64,000 nt of DNA. Source: Bacillota bacterium (GTDB lineage Bacteria; Bacillota; Clostridia; Peptostreptococcales; Anaerovoracaceae). The stretch is taken from NCBI GenBank assembly GCA_052034085.1, contig JBPOJA010000026.1, positions 414 through 64,413 of the forward strand, given 5' to 3'. How positions within the stretch are numbered: the stretch's first letter is position 1; every line of letters begins with the position of its first letter. A program made the position numbers and the translations under genes. Of the stretch, positions 30,975 to 53,680 are shown piece by piece. The notes beneath the pieces are model-generated. The model did not search any database. It was not told the origin of the DNA and saw only the letters and a list, made by a program, of their open reading frames with translations.

Positions 30975-31057
30975 CCGGCACGGAGCCGGGATGTCTTTTT
31001 ACAGCCGGCACGGAGCCGGGATGTCTTTTTACAGCCGGCACGGGGCCGGGACATCTG
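30975..31057. repeat. 30-bp tandem repeat, 2.8 copies
   Basis: CCGGCACGGAGCCGGGATGTCTTTTTACAG occurs twice plus a partial copy. Each unit holds the small hairpin CCGGC-ACGGA-GCCGG. The array lies in the ltaE upstream region. Confidence 0.85.
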
Positions 31058-31062
31058 AAATT

Positions 31063-31094
31063 AAATGGCTGTGATGATAATATCACAGCCATTT
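31063..31094 (-). terminator. 13-bp perfect hairpin ending the 4-gene cluster
   Basis: AAATGGCTGTGAT-GATAAT-ATCACAGCCATTT, about 90 nt after the stop at 31181. The T-run is modest. Confidence 0.45.
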
Positions 31095-31133
31095 TCACGT
31101 TTCAATCGATGTCGCTGAAATCGGACCTTTACC

Positions 31134-31207
31134 TCAGGACATCTTTGTGCTCAGGTACTAATCTCCGGGCATCTTTGTACTCAGGCCTTAATCTCCGGGC
31201 ATCTGAG
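31134..31207. repeat. Second 30-bp tandem repeat, about 2.5 copies, overlapping a gene 3' end
   Basis: TCAGGTACTAATCTCCGGGCATCTTTGTAC / TCAGGCCTTAATCTCCGGGCATCTGAG, plus a partial copy at 31134. The TGA stop of the 301-aa ORF lies inside the last unit. Confidence 0.75.
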
Positions 31208-32086
31208 ATAGTGCTCTACAATGCTCAGCAGCTGTTCTCCGCTTAAGGCCAGCAGATTAATTTCTTCGTCGCCCATCGAAAGGTAAATTATATCTCTCAG
31301 GCCGGCAACAAAAGCAAGTCCGGTGTCAAATGTAACTTCTCCCTCTTCATCCAGGGAAAACAGTTCAAGCACCACCATGGCTTTGGGTACAAGCATACTT
31401 CTTGCCATTTCTGCCAATTCATCATTAAGTCTGTAATCTCCTTCAACCAGGCCCTTTTCTTTCAGGGATTCAAGAAGTTTCTTCACGTCTGCTTTTTCCG
31501 GCGGTTCATAGCCATAGCTTTCGATCAGTATCTTTGTCATACTGTTGCCTTTAGAGTCAAACAAGGCATCCGCCACGGCTTTTTCATCGTATGTGTCATG
31601 CAGTTCCGCTGCACCGCCCTGATAAAGAAGATTATTTTTTCTGTATGCGTCAACCAGCGCAAACAACACAAGCATCTCTTTTGAAGCTGCTTCAACTTCG
31701 ATATCCGCAATCTTCATTTTTCCCATGCCCACAAATTCCGACAGGTAAATCATCATCATGTCAAATTCCAGCAACAGCTTGAATGACAGGTCTCCCATAT
31801 CGTTGTCAATCTGGACATATTTTTCGCCCATCCGGTAAACATATTTTTCAACGATCACCTTATCGTCCTGAATTGCCAGTCTTGCCGCACCGGTTCCTTT
31901 GGCCACCACTTCAAAGACCTCCGCGGCAGCGGCATCGAGGGCTCCGTTTTTCAAAATGCCTTTGCTTTCAAGACTCTTCGCCTCGGAACCGTCCATTGGT
32001 GCCTCCAGTGTCGTAAAGAGGCTAATCGGGGACTTTTCTTCCAACAGTTCTGCCACATAGGCCACTTCATTTATACTAAGTTTCAT
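31181..32086 (-). CDS. Hypothetical acidic cytoplasmic protein (301 aa), last gene of the 4-gene cluster
   Basis: Long ORF with no signal peptide or TM segment. I recognise no motif in it. It starts 22 nt after the stop of the 1037-aa gene. Confidence 0.6.
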   Translation of the reverse strand: MKLSINEVAYVAELLEEKSPISLFTTLEAPMDGSEAKSLESKGILKNGALDAAAAEVFEVVAKGTGAARLAIQDDKVIVEKYVYRMGEKYVQIDNDMGDLSFKLLLEFDMMMIYLSEFVGMGKMKIADIEVEAASKEMLVLFALVDAYRKNNLLYQGGAAELHDTYDEKAVADALFDSKGNSMTKILIESYGYEPPEKADVKKLLESLKEKGLVEGDYRLNDELAEMARSMLVPKAMVVLELFSLDEEGEVTFDTGLAFVAGLRDIIYLSMGDEEINLLALSGEQLLSIVEHYLRCPEIKA

Positions 32087-32108
32087 CTCATCAGCTCCTT
32101 TACAATCA

Positions 32109-35100
32109 CTATATTAATTTTCGCACTCCGGCGGCAGTTGCCTTGCCCAGGGGTTTGCTCACATATGGTTTAACTACGAAAGAATCTGTTACATTCTTTC
32201 CGAGCTTGGCTCCGAAAACTTTTGTAATGGGGCCTGCCGCGCTTTTGATGAAGCCCGCTCCATCTCCCTCTGTTAATGGGAACTTGGGAAGAGTGGTCCC
32301 GGGAGCCGGCTTGGCCAGCTTATCACTGACATGAAGCATAGCTCCTTTTATCGAGCCTTCCACAAAGCCTTGTGCGGCACCTTCTGCTCCCTTATCAATA
32401 TAACCAGCTACGGTTTCACCTGTAACTACTGTGGCAAATTTGCCAGCCGCCCCGGGGACATAACCCCTTGCTGCAGCGGCTGCGCCCTTCACCGCGCCTT
32501 TCTTTAAACTCTTGACGGACCAGTCGCCGGATGCGCCTTCATAAGCCACATTTCTGACAAATTTGTAGCCTGCGTTGATTCCTTTCCCAACGGGTCCGGT
32601 TACCTTTCCCAGAGCATCCATTGAGGCATCGGCAGCATTCATAACTAGCGTGGCTCCGCCTTCTGCCCATGCTCCTACTCTATCCACGTGCATCCATCTT
32701 TCATATGACTGTTTGTTGAATGCATCATTTATACCTATTATTGCTTCCAGATCAGCCCTCGAAGAGACGTTATATTTCTTGAACAATTGACGGTACAGTT
32801 CATCTTTTTTGCGCTGTTGATCAATTTTCATTTCAGTTTCCCACACAAGGTAATCCTGAAGCGTCTCGCCTTTTACATTTTTCTCCCATTCTCTTTCTAT
32901 GAATTCCCTGTCTTTTTCAAGATTGGGTTTTACAACTTTCTCATAGGCTTCCATATCTAAGACACCGCCGGTTTCCGGATTGACATATTCGCCCGTTGCA
33001 GGGTCACGAACATATCTGGATATCCTGCCGGTATGGTCAGTTACCAGTTCAAGCTCATCCGGACCTTCGGGCATGCCTGTTCCCGGTGTGCCGGGTGTTT
33101 GGCCTGCATCCGGCCCTGCGGCCGCGGTTGCCGCAACACCGCTGTCAGGGGCACCGGTCTCGTAACCGCCTTCGGTTGTACCGGCTTCATGGCCGGCTTC
33201 GTAGCCGCCTTCATAGCTGTCGGTGGAAGTGCCGCCATCATATCCCGAATCGCCGCCGTCGTAGCCGCCGTCTTCGTCATATCCGCCGAAGACACCTCCC
33301 GACTCTCCTCCGGAAGCGCCGCCGGTCGCAGCGGCTATTTCGTTGTCACCTACTGAAACAGGATCGTTGGGATCGCCACCTGAGGCCCCCAGGGCTTCTG
33401 CAAGAATTGCCCAGGCCTCTGACTCTCTTTCAGAAATGAGCCTGCCCGAAGGTTTGGGTTTGGGCATTTCTTTAGGCTTAAGCGCATTCGAAATAGCTGT
33501 GGCAAGAAGGCCTACCAAGGGCGGGAAAAGCATTCCAGCCGCAGCTTCAAAGGGACTGTCGGGGCCCGGAATATTTCCGGCTCCATATGCCGCTCCTATG
33601 GCAGCAATTACATAGGAAGGAAGTTCATCCTTTACCTTGTAGCCTTTGCCGTTGAGATTGTATGTGTTGCTGTCAGCGCCTTTGTTCTTTGATGGCATTC
33701 TGTCGTAGTAACCGTTGCCGCCGACAGTCACTGAAATTACCCCGTTGATTGCTTTTTCGAAACGAATTTCGCCGTTGGCTGAAATCGCCGCTTTGTATGG
33801 CAGTCCGGTCAGGTCTGCCGCAAATTCCAGTTTGGCAACCGCATAATCCACTCCTCTTTCCAGCACGGGGCAGTTTTGCGAGAACGGCATGCCTTCGTAC
33901 TTGCCAATGATTTCAATGAATTCGCCTTTATCAATGACCGCCAGCACCTGATCATAGAGTTCTTTAGACTTCTCGGGTGGATCCACATCCCCCATGAGAG
34001 TTCTTATCTTATACAGAAATATGTTCATATTGTAAGTGCCGGTGAAAACCGTAAATTCTTCCGGTGCGGGTGAAACACTGACCGAAAACACCGGATCCCC
34101 GTCTTCGTCAAAATCCAATGCCCATTTATCATCGATGTCTAAGTAATACACTCCCGGAGGCAGTATAATGTCCGGCATAACCATCCAGAAAGTATTTGGC
34201 GCATTTCCGGGGCCGTAGCCCTGGGACTGGAATGCGGCCACCATCTCGTCTTCATCATTATAGATATATATGATGCCCGGCATGGCGCCTTCGCCGTTGT
34301 TCCAGGTGCTAAGAATTATTTCATCGATTATATAGCTTTCATCCAGTTCGAAAGCGGGGGCTTTATATGGTATTTCGACACCCATCCAGGTCGGTTCCTC
34401 CACCAGATCGGAGAGTACCCTATCCCAGAATTCATCGCTGAGTTCCTGGTTGCCGATTACTTCCGGTTCTTCTTCACCTAGCCACTTTACCAGTTTTTCT
34501 TTATATTTTTCATAGGCCTTGAAATCCATGCCTTTGACGAAATAACCCTCTGCCGGCCAGGCACCACCCGCCAGCTGAATCATGTATCTGCCTTTGGGCA
34601 ACACTATGGCATCTTCCGGATAATAGTAAACTATGGTATCGCCCTTCTGGCCTTCAAGCCTCTCGCCGTAATGTGGAGTATAATCCTCGATGCCTTCGGT
34701 ATTTTCCAGGTCTCCTATTAGCTCATCCTGTTCTTCGTCCGGTTCTCCATCCGGCATACCTCCCGTGTCATCGTAACCCGGAGGAGGCGGCGATGAAGGT
34801 GGCTGAACTTCTTTTAAGGTACCCACATAGGCTATTTCTCCCGAAAAGCCCTGATAGACATTGCCCTGATCCGAAACCAGAGCCATATACATAGGTTCAA
34901 GCAGAAGCCCCGGGAATGGAATATAGATGCCAGTCAGCACTGTGGTTTCCTTCACATCAAAGGTGAAGAATGCTTCGGTGCTGGGCTTGTTAAAATTGCC
35001 TCTGAAACCCACTACCAGGGTGTTTGCTCCTTCGTAGGTGAACTGAGAGGTGTACCAGCTGCCCTTTTGAACGATTGCTTTTTCGTAAGGTCTTTCGGGC

Positions 35101-35222
35101 GGTGCACCCTGGCCTGCCGCATAGCTTGAAAAAGGCATAAATGTCATGACCAGCAGATAGGCCAGCAATATTATGCTTAGCATCCGTCTCATTGTGCTAT
35201 TTTTAATTGGTCTCCTGATCAT
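32109..35222 (-). CDS. Large single-pass envelope protein (1037 aa), function unknown
   Basis: The N-terminus carries a signal peptide (MRRMLSIILLAYLLVMTFMPFSSYAAG). About 520 aa of extracytoplasmic sequence follows, interrupted by a Pro/acidic linker. A hydrophobic span (AAAGMLFPPLVGLLATAISNAL) is followed by KPKEMPKPKP. Next comes a Gly/Asp/Tyr-rich low-complexity stretch of about 110 aa. The C-terminal ~330 aa comprise a charged helical region and a Gly/Ala/Lys-rich tail. Confidence 0.7.
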   Translation of the reverse strand: MIRRPIKNSTMRRMLSIILLAYLLVMTFMPFSSYAAGQGAPPERPYEKAIVQKGSWYTSQFTYEGANTLVVGFRGNFNKPSTEAFFTFDVKETTVLTGIYIPFPGLLLEPMYMALVSDQGNVYQGFSGEIAYVGTLKEVQPPSSPPPPGYDDTGGMPDGEPDEEQDELIGDLENTEGIEDYTPHYGERLEGQKGDTIVYYYPEDAIVLPKGRYMIQLAGGAWPAEGYFVKGMDFKAYEKYKEKLVKWLGEEEPEVIGNQELSDEFWDRVLSDLVEEPTWMGVEIPYKAPAFELDESYIIDEIILSTWNNGEGAMPGIIYIYNDEDEMVAAFQSQGYGPGNAPNTFWMVMPDIILPPGVYYLDIDDKWALDFDEDGDPVFSVSVSPAPEEFTVFTGTYNMNIFLYKIRTLMGDVDPPEKSKELYDQVLAVIDKGEFIEIIGKYEGMPFSQNCPVLERGVDYAVAKLEFAADLTGLPYKAAISANGEIRFEKAINGVISVTVGGNGYYDRMPSKNKGADSNTYNLNGKGYKVKDELPSYVIAAIGAAYGAGNIPGPDSPFEAAAGMLFPPLVGLLATAISNALKPKEMPKPKPSGRLISERESEAWAILAEALGASGGDPNDPVSVGDNEIAAATGGASGGESGGVFGGYDEDGGYDGGDSGYDGGTSTDSYEGGYEAGHEAGTTEGGYETGAPDSGVAATAAAGPDAGQTPGTPGTGMPEGPDELELVTDHTGRISRYVRDPATGEYVNPETGGVLDMEAYEKVVKPNLEKDREFIEREWEKNVKGETLQDYLVWETEMKIDQQRKKDELYRQLFKKYNVSSRADLEAIIGINDAFNKQSYERWMHVDRVGAWAEGGATLVMNAADASMDALGKVTGPVGKGINAGYKFVRNVAYEGASGDWSVKSLKKGAVKGAAAAARGYVPGAAGKFATVVTGETVAGYIDKGAEGAAQGFVEGSIKGAMLHVSDKLAKPAPGTTLPKFPLTEGDGAGFIKSAAGPITKVFGAKLGKNVTDSFVVKPYVSKPLGKATAAGVRKLI

Positions 35223-35764
35223 AGTATGCCACCCCCTATCAGGGAACGTAACAGCTCATAACCGCCTTCAATAAATGAAGGAATTCTGTACATGTATCCA
35301 AAAGACAGGGTCCAGGCCGCAGAAAACAGGAAGGACATAACTGCCGCCCCTATGGTGTTTTTAAAAGCGGGCTTTTCTGATAGCTTGTTCATTTCGATGG
35401 CTGAAGCTGTTCCCACCGCCATAATTCCTGCCGTAATGAAAGGCACGCTCATGGACCAGCGCAACCCGAACACCGCAATGAGCAGCATGATTGCGAACGG
35501 GGTCAGGAAGAGCATGCCGTTATCAATGGCATATTTCATTGCCGCTTTGCCATGCTCTTTTTTTATTTTCCCGTTGAAGGCGCTGAGTATTGCCTTAAGA
35601 AAAATCCTGAAGACCATGCCGAAAATCAGACCCACAACGGCTCCAACTATTAGATGAAAGAGGTTTAATGGATTCATGGGATCTGCAAAGGCCCCTATTC
35701 CAAGGGCTATAAACGAAAGCCTTCTGACCAGTGTTCTGGCTCCCTTGCCTTTTTTGAAGTCCAT
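35219..35764 (-). CDS. Hypothetical polytopic membrane protein (181 aa)
   Basis: 4-5 predicted TM helices. The stop overlaps the start of the 1037-aa gene (ATGA). Confidence 0.6.
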   Translation of the reverse strand: MDFKKGKGARTLVRRLSFIALGIGAFADPMNPLNLFHLIVGAVVGLIFGMVFRIFLKAILSAFNGKIKKEHGKAAMKYAIDNGMLFLTPFAIMLLIAVFGLRWSMSVPFITAGIMAVGTASAIEMNKLSEKPAFKNTIGAAVMSFLFSAAWTLSFGYMYRIPSFIEGGYELLRSLIGGGIL

Positions 35765-35776
35765 ATGCCCACCCCC

Positions 35777-36328
35777 TTAAAGATTCCCAAAGACAGACCA
35801 GGAGATGAGCACAAGGGCTCCCACCAGGCTGGCTATGGGGACACTGAGAGCATTTTTCCCGCCGGTTAGTTCCCGTATCGTAAACATCATGGGGCCTATT
35901 GCCCAGAGAACTCCGGTTACGCCAAAGGCAATGGAAGTTTTCCAGCCTAGGGCAAGTGAAAAAATAATTCCTAAAATTCCGTAAATCAAGGCGCCGCTGT
36001 AGCTTAAACAAAAAGCGGATACCGCCTCAAGAATGCTCTTGTCCGTTTTCGCGGCTTTTAATATGACCCAAACTACCACTCCAAGAATAGGAATGACAAC
36101 CAGTCCGTAGGCCAGCCCTGTTCCGGCTGAAAAAATCACAAAACCCGTGCCTTTCTGGCCCGTTTTGTAAAGATCCATGCCGGTTTGCAGGAAGAACAGC
36201 CCAAAGGCCACGGCGGAAACCGCCGCAGATAAGTACCATTTGTTGGCAAAGGCATCTTTGATTGCACCCGAAGGATTAATCATCATGCCAAAAATGGTTC
36301 TGACCAGGGATCGTTTCTCCTGTTCCAT
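35777..36328 (-). CDS. Yip1-domain-like membrane protein (183 aa)
   Basis: The N-terminus IFGMMINPSGAIKDAFANKWYLSAAVSAV is followed by 5 TM helices, a layout typical of bacterial YIP1-family proteins. The assignment is by resemblance. Confidence 0.5.
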   Translation of the reverse strand: MEQEKRSLVRTIFGMMINPSGAIKDAFANKWYLSAAVSAVAFGLFFLQTGMDLYKTGQKGTGFVIFSAGTGLAYGLVVIPILGVVVWVILKAAKTDKSILEAVSAFCLSYSGALIYGILGIIFSLALGWKTSIAFGVTGVLWAIGPMMFTIRELTGGKNALSVPIASLVGALVLISWSVFGNL

Positions 36329-36441
36329 TTCACACCTGCCTTTCTCAATTGTTAATTAAAAGATTTCGGGTTTTTGACTGTAAGTCTTTCGCTGATTTTT
36401 CGGCCTCACCCCTCAGTCTGAATAGTCTGATATTTATAGAA

Positions 36442-36469
36442 ATTATAACAATTTTAGGTGCATGTGTAA
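36442..36469 (-). promoter_or_regulatory. Sigma-A promoter of the 4-gene cluster
   Basis: The minus strand reads TTACAC-N16-TATAAT with an extended-10 TG (TGtTATAAT). It lies about 110 nt upstream of the Yip1-like start. Confidence 0.6.
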
Positions 36470-36487
36470 ATAAGAAAGTAGCGACTG

Positions 36488-36666
36488 TATGACGGTGGTA
36501 TGTATGACAGGGATGACAGTGGTGACAGTGGGACAGACCTTTTGACATGACAGACATGTATGACAGTGGGACAGACCTTTTGTCATATGACAGTGGGACA
36601 GACCTTTTGACATATGTCAAAAGGTCTGTCCCACTGTCATCATTTTGTCATCTGTCTCATTGTCTT
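36488..36666. repeat. GACAG palindromic element cluster, locus 1 (T/A variant)
   Basis: There are three direct copies of GACAGTGGGACAGACCTTTTG(A/T)CA plus one inverted copy. The last pair forms a 52-bp perfect palindrome at 36588-36639, centred on CATATG. The cluster is flanked by TGACAG/ATGACAG short repeats and begins about 3 nt after the stop at 36669. Confidence 0.9.
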
Positions 36667-36668
36667 CT

Positions 36669-37745
36669 CTACAGTTCGAGCTCCATAAATCTTGCCCCCG
36701 GGATGGGATTGTAGATGTAAGGCTCGATATCATAGAAGCCCAGGCTCTCATATAACTTCTGAGCTTTTTCCATGGTGGCCAGGGTGTCCAGCCTCATGTA
36801 CTTGTAGCCCTTTTTTCTAGCCTCATTTATGATGCGACGTGCAAGCTCGCTGCCGATATCAAGTCCGCCATAGGCATGGTCTACATAGAGCCTCTTCATT
36901 TCACAGATTGAATCCGGCTTCGCAGGATTATTGTCTGGCGGAATTCGACCGGTCGGATTGCTTATGGGACGCAGAGCCACGCAGCCTATTGCCGCAAGTT
37001 CGGCTGTGAATGAGAACTGGCCGTATAAAGAAGCTTCAGCAGGCGCCGGCGCATCTGCGTCAACGACTTGCGCAATTATGATGGCGCCGTCGGGCGAGGC
37101 ATAAGCCCCGGGCAATTCCGCCAGCTCCCGGGCAAAGCCCTGAAACTGCAAATCAATCCCGATATGTTTCTCATATTGTTTGAAAAGACGCCTCAGCTCT
37201 TCCAGCAAGTGCGGATTTTTTTCATCTTCTGCACCCAGCACTTTATATTCAACAACATAATCTCCGGCATAATGCACTTCTTTGGAGAAAAACATAGGGT
37301 CTGCATTTTTCAATTTAAGCAGATCTTCATATGCAAGCAACTTTAAGCCCCTGCTTTCAAGGAAATTTTGTACACCCGACCGGATTATCTCATGCTCCAA
37401 CAGAAAAGGTTCTTCCGAAACAATCAGATTTTGCCCCTTGCTCCCCTTAACGTATTTTAGAAAATCCAGATATGCCAGTTTTTCATCTTCTGAAATGTTT
37501 ACAACCATGTAAAATACATGGTTGCGGTCCGAGAAATCAGCGAACTCCTCCCCTCCAAAATCACCGTCAAAATCGCTCAGGCTCACATAAAAAGCCTTGT
37601 TTTGCGTCCGGTCAAAGTCGCTTAAATCCTCTACTTTCCGGCCGGGGAAAGCCGTTTGCAGTTCATGTTCCCAGTCCGTCATCTTTCCGTTTCCTTGATA
37701 TTTTCCTAAATATTTTTTTGCTGGAATTATTATAACATTTGTCAT
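36669..37745 (-). CDS. GNAT acetyltransferase domain fused to an uncharacterised ~170-aa N-terminal domain
   Basis: The C-terminal half carries GNAT motifs (RLYVDHAYGGLDIGSELARRIINEARKKGYKYMRLDT, LYESLGF). I do not recognise the N-terminal half. Confidence 0.65.
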   Translation of the reverse strand: MTNVIIIPAKKYLGKYQGNGKMTDWEHELQTAFPGRKVEDLSDFDRTQNKAFYVSLSDFDGDFGGEEFADFSDRNHVFYMVVNISEDEKLAYLDFLKYVKGSKGQNLIVSEEPFLLEHEIIRSGVQNFLESRGLKLLAYEDLLKLKNADPMFFSKEVHYAGDYVVEYKVLGAEDEKNPHLLEELRRLFKQYEKHIGIDLQFQGFARELAELPGAYASPDGAIIIAQVVDADAPAPAEASLYGQFSFTAELAAIGCVALRPISNPTGRIPPDNNPAKPDSICEMKRLYVDHAYGGLDIGSELARRIINEARKKGYKYMRLDTLATMEKAQKLYESLGFYDIEPYIYNPIPGARFMELEL

Positions 37746-37790
37746 GTTAAGTAGGAACAGGAATAGATGTTATCAGCTATTACACGAGGA

Positions 37791-38717
37791 TTATCGGTCA
37801 TTTTGAAAAAGGCCGCGCAATTGTGCATGGGCGGCGTCGAATTTTGCCGTTCTGATTTGAACCCGTCGCCCTATTCTTTTAGCAAGGTTGTGCGCAAAAT
37901 CCCTGCAGGCGTCCGGATTATGCAGCTGCAAGGTGCTTAAACTCATGGTGCCGATCCCCTGACTTTCCAGAATGACAGATCTCATTGCATCTTTTCCCTG
38001 CTCTGACGGACTGTTATGAAAAGCAAAACTGTCGTACTCTACGACCAGTTTTGCTTCCTTGTAATATAAATCGAGGAAACAGCGCTTCTGGCCCAGGCGC
38101 TGTTTCCCTTCGTCTCTCAACTTTATTTCATAGTTGAAAATCGGTTTTCCAAGGCCGTATCCTCCCAAGTGGTTGGGCAGCGACAGAACCATAAACGCAA
38201 AAGATTCCATTACGGAGGCTGAGCCGTTTTCGATGAATCGCAAGGCGTGAGCGGATTTCTGTACTCCACGAAGCCCGGGTGCCTTTTTTATGAAATTGCA
38301 TAATTTCTGTTTTGATGTGACAGCTTTTTGGGGCTGTCCCGGAGGGAATGAGCACATTTGCAGGCCAAGAAGAGTTAACTGATGAAGGTTCAATTCTGTA
38401 GCCAACTGCAGAAAAACCAGTTCCGGTGAAGCAATTTTCAAATTCGGCCGAGTATTTTCACTATCTGCTTCTGCGCCTATGACTTTTTTTACTGAGCTGC
38501 TGCTTAGTACGGCATTTGAAGGTAAGGGTGTTTGACATAAATGCGTAATCTGCCCGTGCCTGAAATTTCTTTCACCTCTTTTTAAATAAGTAATATGGGC
38601 CTTCTCTGACCTTTCATCCAAATTCATAAAAATTTGATCAAGATAAGAAATTTGCCAAATTCGCGCTGCCGTATAATGACTGATAAAGGATTTGCTGTTA
38701 TTCATATTCCGTATCAT
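37791..38717 (-). CDS. DUF559 / Vsr-like PD-(D/E)xK endonuclease-domain protein with AbiEi-like N-terminus
   Basis: 308 aa. The N-terminus ISHYTAARIW and the C-terminal block CFLDLYYKEAKLVVEYDSFAFH...R..D..R resemble DUF559 proteins. Confidence 0.55.
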   Translation of the reverse strand: MIRNMNNSKSFISHYTAARIWQISYLDQIFMNLDERSEKAHITYLKRGERNFRHGQITHLCQTPLPSNAVLSSSSVKKVIGAEADSENTRPNLKIASPELVFLQLATELNLHQLTLLGLQMCSFPPGQPQKAVTSKQKLCNFIKKAPGLRGVQKSAHALRFIENGSASVMESFAFMVLSLPNHLGGYGLGKPIFNYEIKLRDEGKQRLGQKRCFLDLYYKEAKLVVEYDSFAFHNSPSEQGKDAMRSVILESQGIGTMSLSTLQLHNPDACRDFAHNLAKRIGRRVQIRTAKFDAAHAQLRGLFQNDR

Positions 38718-41978: not shown

Positions 41979-42097
41979 ATATGACAGGGGGACATATGAC
42001 AGGGGGACAGCCCTTTTGACATATGGCATATGACAGGGGCATTCTAACGCCTGATGACAAAAGATGTCAAAAGGGCTGTCCCCCTGTCATCCTGTCA
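41979..42097. repeat. GACAG palindromic element, locus 2 (split arms)
   Basis: GACAGGGGGACAGCCCTTTTGACA at 41998-42021 and its exact inverse at 42065-42088, separated by 43 nt. Flanking ATGACAG/CTGTCAT repeats are present. The element abuts the glyQS TGA. Confidence 0.9.
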
Positions 42098-44947: not shown

Positions 44948-45032
44948 TGATGACAGATGACAGGGGGACAGCCCTTTTGACACATGACAAAAGGGCTGTC
45001 CCCCTGTCATCACCTGTCATCACCTGTCATCA
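44948..45032. repeat. GACAG palindromic element, locus 3
   Basis: TGATGACAGATGACAGGGGGACAGCCCTTTTGACACATGACAAAAGGGCTGTCCCCCTGTCATCACCTGTCATCACCTGTCATCA. It fills the whole era-recO spacer and includes the era TGA. Confidence 0.9.
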
Positions 45033-53610: not shown

Positions 53611-53680
53611 GAATGACAGGGAATGACAGGGGGACAGCCCTTTTGACACATGTCAAAAGGGCTGTCCCCCTGTCATGTCA
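53611..53680. repeat. GACAG palindromic element, locus 4
   Basis: GAATGACAGGGAATGACAGGGGGACAGCCCTTTTGACACATGTCAAAAGGGCTGTCCCCCTGTCATGTCATT. It starts directly after the dnaJ TAA and ends 13 nt before the prmA ATG. Confidence 0.9.

Follow-up and report, generated by a model that had tools for sequence, protein, structure and literature searches.

Four consecutive genes, here denoted g1 to g4, on the minus strand of a 64,000-nucleotide (nt) stretch of an Anaerovoracaceae genome (contig JBPOJA010000026.1; hereafter, the window) are a real, conserved and hitherto undescribed envelope module of anaerobic Clostridia, and this locus is the minimal four-gene form of that system. The genes encode a divergent Yip1-like membrane protein of 183 amino acids (aa) with ~5 transmembrane (TM) segments (g1, 35777–36328), a ~4-TM membrane protein of 181 aa with no family assigned, the stop codon of which overlaps the start of the next gene (g2, 35219–35764), a 1037-aa protein with a signal peptide and a single TM segment, the largest open reading frame (ORF) in the window (g3, 32109–35222), and an acidic soluble protein of 301 aa with the EspG fold (g4, 31181–32086). 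Of the interpretations considered here, the most likely, although still a tentative one, is that the module comprises a membrane-anchored polymorphic effector, its cognate EspG-fold chaperone and a conserved membrane sub-complex. The four ORFs were found where the original prediction, made from the DNA alone, had placed them, with the same spacing (12 nt between g1 and g2, −4 nt, i.e. an ATGA overlap, between g2 and g3, and 22 nt between g3 and g4), and hydropathy yields the same topology for g1, g2 and g4.

The relatives of g3 are rare and patchily distributed: among 5.8 billion proteins, they form 27 clusters at 90% identity, all of them unnamed or labeled ‘hypothetical'. The loci fetched with a g3 relative include 21 complete ones and one 3-kb contig that shows g2 and g3 only (loci, gene families and individual proteins are designated below by L, C and P numbers, respectively). 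Had the genes failed to co-occur in other genomes, their original description as a unit would have been undermined; instead, homologues of g1 and g2 lie directly upstream of g3 in all 21 complete loci, and the 4-nt ATGA overlap of g2 and g3 is kept in the four loci with called genes (L001, L003, L004 and L005). The loci with the g1–g2–g3 core come from Syntrophomonadaceae, Oscillospiraceae, Anaerovoracaceae, Proteocatella, Geosporobacter subterraneus, Dethiobacter and Phosphitispora fastidiosa. At least three further assemblies retain all four genes, with 100% identical g4; in L026, which encodes the 98%-identical relative P0001, the gene order is g1, g2, g3, g4, an aldolase-like gene and an M28 peptidase gene. 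The identity to the relatives is very uneven, at 55–85% for g1, the most conserved component, 41–73% for g2 and 31–45% for g3. Searches with tblastn detected no match on a plasmid or phage. In RefSeq, the components are labeled ‘hypothetical protein', except for a ‘zinc ribbon domain-containing protein' and a ‘LuxR C-terminal-related transcriptional regulator', and the literature searched yielded no paper on this system and nothing relevant on DUF8367, a family that recurs in these loci (see below), or on EspG-like proteins of Firmicutes in this context.

Most of the relatives' loci hold 3–8 extra conserved genes beyond the core. The C5 genes, present in 13 loci (e.g. L003 2316–3767), encode a domain of ~10–12 TM segments that is weakly similar to the major facilitator superfamily, fused to a C-terminal LuxR/GerE helix-turn-helix; this regulator of unusual architecture heads most of the full clusters and is found also in loci with short paralogues. 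The other extra genes encode a ~180-aa membrane protein (C8), paralogous Zn-ribbon membrane proteins (C4), a 3-TM protein (C18), lipoproteins (C16, C21, C23 and C25) and, in some loci, LGT. The lipoprotein C16 brackets the core cluster in several loci (L001 5236–5859 and 10947–11633; L003 5256–5870 and 12787–13455), and its ‘DPYEAYGL' motif near the lipobox resembles the mature N-terminus of g3, EPYEKV…, so that the two may share a docking motif. None of these extra genes (C5, C4, C8, C18, the lipoproteins and LGT) is encoded in the 64-kb window, and the window locus is therefore a stripped-down core. Accordingly, the original description of the cluster as self-contained holds in this lineage but does not extend to most of the relatives.

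The anatomy of g3 was derived from the family alignment (27 sequences for the invariant columns), hydropathy and an AlphaFold2 (AF2) model; all the coordinates that follow are on the minus strand. The protein starts with a signal peptide (aa 1–36, …SSYA|AG; 35115–35222) that includes a hydrophobic stretch at aa 14–32 and aligns with signal peptides family-wide; in the alignment, the family-conserved methionine is M11. Next comes an extracytoplasmic beta-rich ectodomain (aa 37–545; 33588–35114; pLDDT 70–88), modeled as two beta-sandwich-like domains, an acidic disordered insert (aa 135–192) and an 8-stranded barrel of long beta-strands (aa 395–531). The fold matches of the ectodomain in PDB and BFVD (Foldseek) are weak and generic, to PsbO, avidin and Ail barrels and to phage tail proteins; the whole-chain matches have TM-scores below 0.1 and, with a model pTM of 0.27, such global matches are meaningless. 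The ectodomain is followed by an invariant, proline-rich hydrophobic segment, GAGNIPGPD…AAAGMLFPPLVGL, which forms the single TM anchor and is followed by KPKE (aa 546–581, hydropathy peak 560–581; 33480–33587), with the invariant columns G549, P552–D555 and L565–L569. Next come a juxtamembrane helix and the invariant S(V/I)GDNE motif at aa 623–628 (together aa 582–628; 33339–33479), and the invariant residues of this part are D617, D620, S623, G625, D626, N627 and E628. The remainder consists of a low-complexity linker rich in G, D, E and Y (aa 629–720; 33063–33338; pLDDT <35), a post-TM module that combines a beta-hairpin, ‘RDPxTGxWVNxETG' or ‘RDPxTGxYVNPETG', and a coiled coil and is conserved across tail types (aa 721–850; 32673–33062; pLDDT 73–78 at aa 723–800), and, delineated by alignments and tail clustering, a helical Gly/Ala/Lys-rich tail (aa 851–1037, ending FVVKPYV…; 32112–32672). 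The signal peptide, the single TM segment at 560–581 and the KPKE that follows it predict that the tail resides in the cytoplasm of the producer. Hence only part of the original view of g3 as a secreted or anchored protein is retained: the signal peptide and the single TM anchor stand, but the tail is not predicted to be secreted. Strains differ in g3 by a 7-aa indel, GYDGGDS, in the linker (aa 653–659; 33245–33265; 1037 aa in the window versus 1030 aa in P0001); a third strain has a g3 of 1020 aa, and the substitutions among strains concentrate at aa 507–518, in the beta-barrel.

Within the g3 family, a conserved trunk is joined to tails of three types, A (~190 aa), B (~450 aa) and C (~670 aa), the window tail being of type A. 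An exhaustive HMMER search of 1.84 billion representatives retrieved 84 proteins at E ≤ 1e-30 and 265 at E ≤ 1e-10, among which many of the shorter matches (400–700 aa) consist of the post-TM module and tail only, with smaller ectodomains of their own, some being lipoproteins. An N-terminal signal or anchor and a TM segment precede the module in 62 of the 81 proteins that could be evaluated among the 84, and most of the exceptions are truncated fragments. Two proteins, P0125 and P0140, are soluble: signal peptide, ectodomain and TM segment have all given way to decapeptide repeats of the EGY(D/N) type, which form a long array and recall the G/D/E/Y linker of g3. Clustering of the tails delineates at least six classes, which occur on several N-terminal architectures: among 49 type A tails, 11 are on g3-type carriers and 38 on other carriers, and the type B tails are split 17 to 6. 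Because the same tails recur on differing carriers, the post-TM module emerges as the constant element, and both ends of the protein are exchangeable.

The type A tail ends with a conserved ‘hxhKPxh' motif. Three members with type B tails match the EF/CyaA/ExoY cyclase family PF03497 with E-values of 1.7e-4, 1.9e-5 and 1.4e-3, all below the cut-off, and the similarity covers the nucleotide-binding start of these toxins; against PDB, the type B domain retrieves 7p1h, a Vibrio ExoY-like protein (E = 0.019), and 8bjj (E = 0.81). The type B invariants are K…K-x-K-T, T-x-D-x-D (consensus TGDVD) and a histidine; the last two, which lie further along than the cyclase-like start, could correspond to the catalytic Asp pair and His of EF, but this is a lead rather than a demonstration. 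An example of the cyclase-like C-terminal domain is found at L003 9776–10675, and a DUF8367 gene always follows such domains. In six very long family members (1358–1597 aa), Pfam detected no known C-terminal domains. In L020 (10013–16455), the g3 protein (509 aa) stops ~60 aa past the SIGDNE motif, after an acidic linker, and the next gene encodes a 1134-aa DUF6531-RHS protein (E = 2e-79) that lacks a signal peptide, has the canonical DPEG motif and carries a small hydrophobic domain at its C-terminus; beyond the RHS gene lies another g1/g2 pair, which has diverged (42% and 27% identity). In L025, RHS fragments are located upstream. These RHS genes suggest that the protein can be divided into an anchor half and an effector half, and they point to a toxin context for the system. 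A short type A paralogue, P0141, of a subgroup with the ‘FDDKW' C-terminus, is encoded directly 3' of two serine recombinase genes (L030 2379–7408), which suggests that in this lineage it is carried on a mobile element.

The g4 protein has no TM segment and a pI of 4.5. Whereas a single-sequence search with g4 found g4 alone, the profile of the homologues derived from the loci retrieved 30 clusters. The AF2 model built from the locus-derived alignment is confident (pLDDT 83.2, pTM 0.77) and matches EspG proteins in PDB: the top 18 Foldseek hits are EspG1, EspG3 and EspG5, which are chaperones of mycobacterial type VII secretion (E from 4e-10 to 4e-8, probability 1.0, TM-score 0.47–0.61), and the first non-EspG match follows at E = 1.6e-3 and probability 0.23. 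At the sequence level, there is a partial match to the Pfam EspG family PF14011 (aa 201–262, E = 1.3e-3, 18.8 bits versus the cut-off of 27). Judging from the model, g4 is likely to share ancestry with EspG. No match of g4 to DUF5081 was detected in Pfam, DUF4176, a chaperone family of type VII secretion systems b (T7SSb), is a different family, and homology of g4 to DUF8367 was ruled out (hhalign 0.3%).

The linkage of g4 to the tail, rather than to the rest of g3, is apparent from the gene neighborhoods. By BLAST, the g4 family (C12) is found behind type A tails only, and g4 homologues follow such tails in L001, L004, L015, L018, L023, L025 and L031, whereas the type B tails are followed by DUF8367 (C10) and then C6, and the type C tails by C6. 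Even when type A tails are mounted on carriers with unrelated ectodomains and no g1 or g2 is detected, a g4 homologue is still next, in three carrier architectures; the homologues in L023 and L025 are 40–44% identical to g4 over 300 aa (BLAST) and possess an extra C-terminal Zn-ribbon, and the one in L031 is recovered with hhalign (99.9%, E = 1e-35). The L030 contig ends too early for the presence of a g4 homologue to be judged. A comparison of C6 and g4 profiles gives an hhalign probability of 46.8% (E = 2e-4, 171 colinear columns), so that C6, which has a Zn-ribbon, may be EspG-like but divergent; in that case, a partner of the EspG-like kind would be general to the system, and DUF8367 would be a type-B-specific extra gene. 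The comparison with effector–chaperone pairs in the original prediction gains from the EspG fold of g4 and from the way in which its homologues track the glycine-rich tail on unrelated carriers, although the chaperone role itself is something that we infer.

The two small membrane proteins belong to the other half of g3. Both g1 and g2 track the large ectodomain and the invariant TM segment of g3, not the tail type, and g1, g2 and the N-terminal ~630 residues of g3 always occur together. Nearly the full length of the Pfam Yip1 model (PF04893, positions 1–172 of 173) aligns with g1, at E = 7.5e-5 and 23.1 bits versus the gathering cut-off of 28.6, and 10 of 17 g1 homologues match Yip1 over the full length (E ≤ 0.01); the Yip1-like nature of g1, as originally surmised, thus receives weak support, but every match is below the Pfam cut-off. 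The hydropathy peaks of g1 (33–51, 72–90, 105–135, 133–151 and 161–179) indicate ~5 TM segments in ~180 residues, as in the Yip1 family, and the invariant polar motifs FFxQTGxD and GWKT..FG.TGV.WA lie within the hydrophobic segments. No relatives of g2 were detected in Pfam or PDB, and g1 and g2 were ruled out as paralogues (hhalign 0.6%). Yip1-domain proteins recur in clusters for leaderless and circular bacteriocins, where a role in immunity or transport has been proposed (PMC11580447); none of them is known to have been functionally characterized. Like these proteins, g1 has ~5 TM segments and a Yip1 match, in its case full-length and sub-threshold, and adjoins a gene with a possibly membrane-active product; unlike in the bacteriocin clusters, there is neither a bacteriocin peptide nor an ABC transporter, and g1 accompanies every tail type.

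The searches of known families did not assign the module to any characterized system, in agreement with the original view that the four proteins carry no assignable motif. The four proteins yielded only the sub-threshold matches to Yip1 (g1) and EspG (g4) in Pfam, NCBIfam, PADLOC and PHROGs; g3 has no match at E ≤ 1 in Pfam or NCBIfam, LXG and WXG100 included, its N-terminus being a Sec signal peptide, and none of the four proteins matches a PADLOC model at E ≤ 1. PDB sequence searches with P0017 alone and with profiles of the type A tails, the g4 family, g1, g2 and C6 gave nothing significant. No ATPase or peptidase motif was found, as predicted, and no known toxin domain either. The core families of type VII secretion systems (T7SS; EccC/EssC, WXG100) are absent from the Pfam gene tables of L001–L005, L021–L025, L030 and L031, which cover the flanks.

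The EspG chaperones of mycobacterial ESX (type VIIa) secretion, bound to PE–PPE substrates (e.g. PDB 4w4l, 4kxr and 4w4i), share several features with g4, which adopts the same two-lobed alpha/beta fold (Foldseek E ~1e-10), is cytoplasmic and acidic, adjoins the gene for a long helical region that it plausibly binds, and is specific for one class of partners. In contrast to ESX, neither the window nor the fetched loci showed an EccC/EssC ATPase, EccB/D, MycP or WXG100, the putative client of g4 is not a soluble PE–PPE dimer but the C-terminal end of a membrane protein inserted by Sec, the Pfam EspG match is sub-threshold, and the hosts are Clostridia, not Actinobacteria. The closest known arrangement is EsaD–EsaE–EsaG of Staphylococcus aureus, in which EsaG is the immunity protein and the T7SSb toxin EsaD is served by the chaperone EsaE (DUF5081), itself predicted to resemble EspG (PMC12478183). 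In both cases, a Firmicutes effector, here a putative one, is paired with a cognate EspG-fold protein, and the type B trio of tail, DUF8367 and probably EspG-like C6 recalls toxin, immunity protein and chaperone; the differences are that there is no LXG or nuclease domain and no EssC here, that g4 lacks the DUF5081 match, that the putative effector is fused to a signal peptide, an ectodomain and a TM segment, and that the function of EsaE is itself known only in part. With polymorphic toxins (Rhs/WapA, LXG, CdiA and S8-PTS; PMC3482391, PMC9424270), the family shares the combination of a conserved N-terminal carrier with exchangeable C-terminal cassettes and a downstream gene that covaries with the cassette (C12 with A, C10 and C6 with B, C6 with C, L013 being an exception), as well as the adjacency of RHS in two loci. 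It differs in that a TM anchor precedes the cassettes, the predicted location of which is the cytoplasm, the searches found no toxin or pre-toxin domain of a known kind, the cassette classes are few, orphan modules are missing and the ectodomain is variable too. Membership in the S8-PTS (PMC9424270) was ruled out: there is no S8 peptidase or BetaH among the window proteins or in the neighboring loci. Thus, membership in ESX/T7SS, LXG, S8-PTS or known defense systems fails on the defining features of each, whereas the exchangeable C-terminal cassette, the covarying neighbor and the EspG-fold partner follow the logic of known polymorphic effector systems.

The four genes are tightly packed behind a near-consensus sigma-70-type promoter on the minus strand, TTTACA-17-TGtTATAAT with an extended −10 element (36442–36470), which, with a score of 11/12, is the best site of the region, in accord with the strong promoter that had been assigned to the cluster; the promoter is identical (100% over ~200 nt) in the strain of L026. 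The 5' leader of ~105 nt (36329–36441, minus strand) shows no significant structure (fold z = 0.06) and no Rfam match, and on these grounds a riboswitch or another leader RNA upstream of g1 was ruled out. At the other end, a stable hairpin that could be a terminator (31063–31094, minus strand; 13-bp stem, −20.4 kcal/mol, z = −4.75) sits inside a repeat-containing segment of ~146 nt that is missing from three close assemblies (L026, L028 and L029), and the spacer between g4 and the next, aldolase-like gene is 236 nt long in the window versus 91 nt in L026 and two further assemblies. Two short arrays of 30-nt tandem units (30975–31064 and 31133–31192) flank the hairpin. The segment with the hairpin and the 30-nt repeats is a recent strain-specific insertion or expansion, and because it is absent from three closely related assemblies, the hairpin lies outside the conserved unit; the terminal hairpin of the original prediction is real, then, but is not a conserved part of the cluster.

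The sequence GACAG(T/G)GGGACAG(A/C)CCTTTTG is a repeat of the REP (repetitive extragenic palindromic) type that forms intergenic inverted pairs and arrays, with 10 matches in the window versus 0 expected (intergenic copies at 36520–36642, 41998–42088, 44959–45008 and 53625–53674). The copy at 36587–36640 is a perfect 27-nt palindrome that resembles a bidirectional terminator as well, and a role of these palindromes as a cluster-specific operator was ruled out by the dispersed copies at ~42.0, 45.0 and 53.6 kb. The GACAG palindromes and the 30-bp arrays that were thought to bound the cluster are, accordingly, genomic repeats that are not specific to it. The flanking genes are housekeeping ones, encoding pyruvate phosphate dikinase (PPDK), a class II aminoacyl-tRNA synthetase (aaRS), DUF4342, GNAT, threonine aldolase-like, M28 peptidase and MatE proteins, and the PPDK–aaRS–DUF4342 block is syntenic with that of an Anaerovoracaceae metagenome-assembled genome (L015), where it precedes a fuller version of the cluster. 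Given these flanks and this synteny, the notion that the cluster is embedded in an accessory segment is not well supported. Two ORFs at 36669–38717 encode a GNAT protein of 358 aa, with a long extension at its N-terminus, and a basic protein of 308 aa that matches nothing in Pfam; at the equivalent position, L015 has the genes of the full cluster for the LuxR/GerE regulator, C8 and C4.

In the favored model, g1, g2 and the N-terminal ~630 residues of g3 would assemble in the cytoplasmic membrane into a complex that displays the ectodomain at the cell surface for contact or sensing. The last ~320 residues of g3, from the beta-hairpin module through the coiled coil to the tail, would make up a cytoplasmic sub-module together with g4, and the tail would provide the activity. 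From the genetic linkage of the homologues, and by analogy with EspG/PE–PPE and EsaE/EsaD, we infer that g4 binds and stabilizes the helical type A tail in the cytoplasm, keeping it soluble, inactive or competent for delivery. The tails would act like the C-terminal cassettes of polymorphic effector and toxin systems, each class with its own downstream partner gene or genes. Because the tails are swapped among carriers and each comes with its own partner, a membrane-anchored, chaperone-assisted effector in biological conflict appears most likely, and the conflict context is favored by the RHS genes in L020 and L025, the repeated sub-threshold matches of the type B tails to cyclase toxins, the patchy distribution, the far lower conservation of g3 compared with g1 and g2, and the presence of Yip1 proteins in bacteriocin clusters (PMC11580447).

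Several observations weigh against this model. No tail is a demonstrated toxin, and the type A tail has no relative in Pfam or PDB and only a low-confidence AF2 model. The tail has no visible route of export, given that it is predicted to be cytoplasmic and that neither the Pfam tables nor the ORF family map of the fetched loci show a gene for an ATPase, a translocon or a protease. Compared with classical polymorphic toxins, the diversity of the tails is low (~6 classes, of which two dominate), orphan cassettes are missing, and no obvious immunity gene is present at the window locus, unless it is g1, g2 or g4. The similarity of g4 to EspG, with TM-scores of 0.5–0.6, comes with a high rmsd, the relationship of C6 to g4 has moderate support, and L013, a type A locus, has no g4 homologue downstream.

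The main obstacle, however, is topology: outward delivery of the tail and action inside the producer are both conceivable, so that two alternatives rank as serious rivals. The stronger of these, although in itself unlikely, is suicide or defense triggered at the envelope: the ectodomain with g1 and g2 would sense an insult at the surface, such as phage adsorption or injection or an attack by a competitor, and would free the tail from g4, an EspG-like inhibitor, so that the tail acts in the producer itself, through membrane damage in the case of the glycine-rich type A or nucleotide cyclization in the case of type B. The N-out, C-in topology that places the tail and g4 in one compartment, the failure to see export machinery, the patchy taxonomic distribution and the soluble versions with repeats fused to the module and tail (P0125 and P0140) all agree with such a mechanism, as does the combination of a conserved sensor-like part with exchangeable effector-like parts that is seen in many defense systems. 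Yet, there is no PADLOC match and no phage or plasmid match, the flanks are housekeeping genes rather than a defense island, and RHS proteins like that in L020 are exported toxins, not suicide effectors; moreover, to our knowledge, EspG-fold proteins have precedents as secretion chaperones and none as effector inhibitors. The second rival, somewhat less probable still, is a transmembrane receptor, the ectodomain of which would bind an environmental or cell-surface ligand, while the tail would be the output that recruits g4 as an adaptor, g1 and g2 would be co-receptors or stabilizing subunits, and the membrane-bound LuxR/GerE regulator of most relatives would be the downstream transcription factor. 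A constant cytoplasmic module that is combined with many ectodomains, as with the 38 of 49 type A tails that have other N-termini, is reminiscent of receptor families, the regulator is encoded upstream in 13 loci, and a possible cyclase output of type B would suit second-messenger signaling. However, the window and its close relatives lack the regulator and all other accessory genes, no histidine kinase, GGDEF, STYK or anti-sigma domain was detected in Pfam or NCBIfam, the association with RHS (L020 and L025) fits poorly, and the switching of partner genes with the tail type is unusual for signaling adaptors; furthermore, we know of EF/ExoY-type cyclases only as toxins.

Two further readings keep the effector and change its partners or its path. 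It is improbable, albeit conceivable, that g1, g2 and the N-terminal half of g3 are a hitherto unknown, ATPase-independent membrane conduit or release device that passes an EspG-chaperoned C-terminal effector across the membrane or to a neighboring cell. The effector would be either fused in cis, the situation in the window, or supplied in trans, for which the RHS protein of L020, devoid of a signal peptide, is the example, and cleavage near S(V/I)GDNE could release it; if true, Gram-positive bacteria would possess a new pathway for delivering proteins, one that borrows the chaperone fold of type VII secretion but not its motor. The least probable is the reading in which g4 is an immunity protein and g3 a Sec-exported, surface-anchored toxin, with the hydrophobic segment serving as a translocation domain into targets, not as a stop-transfer anchor. 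The covariation of the gene directly downstream with the tail would be explained in this way, and the order of signal peptide, receptor-binding-like domain, hydrophobic segment and C-terminal activity domain mirrors that in AB-type toxins and bacteriocins; against this, an invariant hydrophobic segment followed by KPKE is what one would expect if it anchors the protein in the membrane, chaperones are the sole strong structural matches of the EspG fold, the probably EspG-like C6 also accompanies other tail types, with DUF8367 being the extra tail-specific gene, and g4, at ~300 aa, is large for an immunity protein.

The EspG-fold chaperones have so far been tied to type VII secretion, whereas the EspG-fold family of this module is tightly linked, in genetic terms, to the cytoplasmic tails of membrane proteins inserted by Sec and, with no type VII core genes seen near any of the fetched loci, would widen the known uses of this chaperone fold. 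The g3 proteins form a new modular family, the ectodomains and tails of which are both exchangeable and which includes possible EF/ExoY-like cyclase tails and an RHS-coupled variant. The system would also provide the first functional context for a bacterial Yip1-like protein conserved at 55–85% identity across families. The window, with four genes only, is the simplest testable version. If the tails are effectors, the module would represent a new way for strictly anaerobic Firmicutes of digesters, sediments and guts to deploy or control toxic activities.

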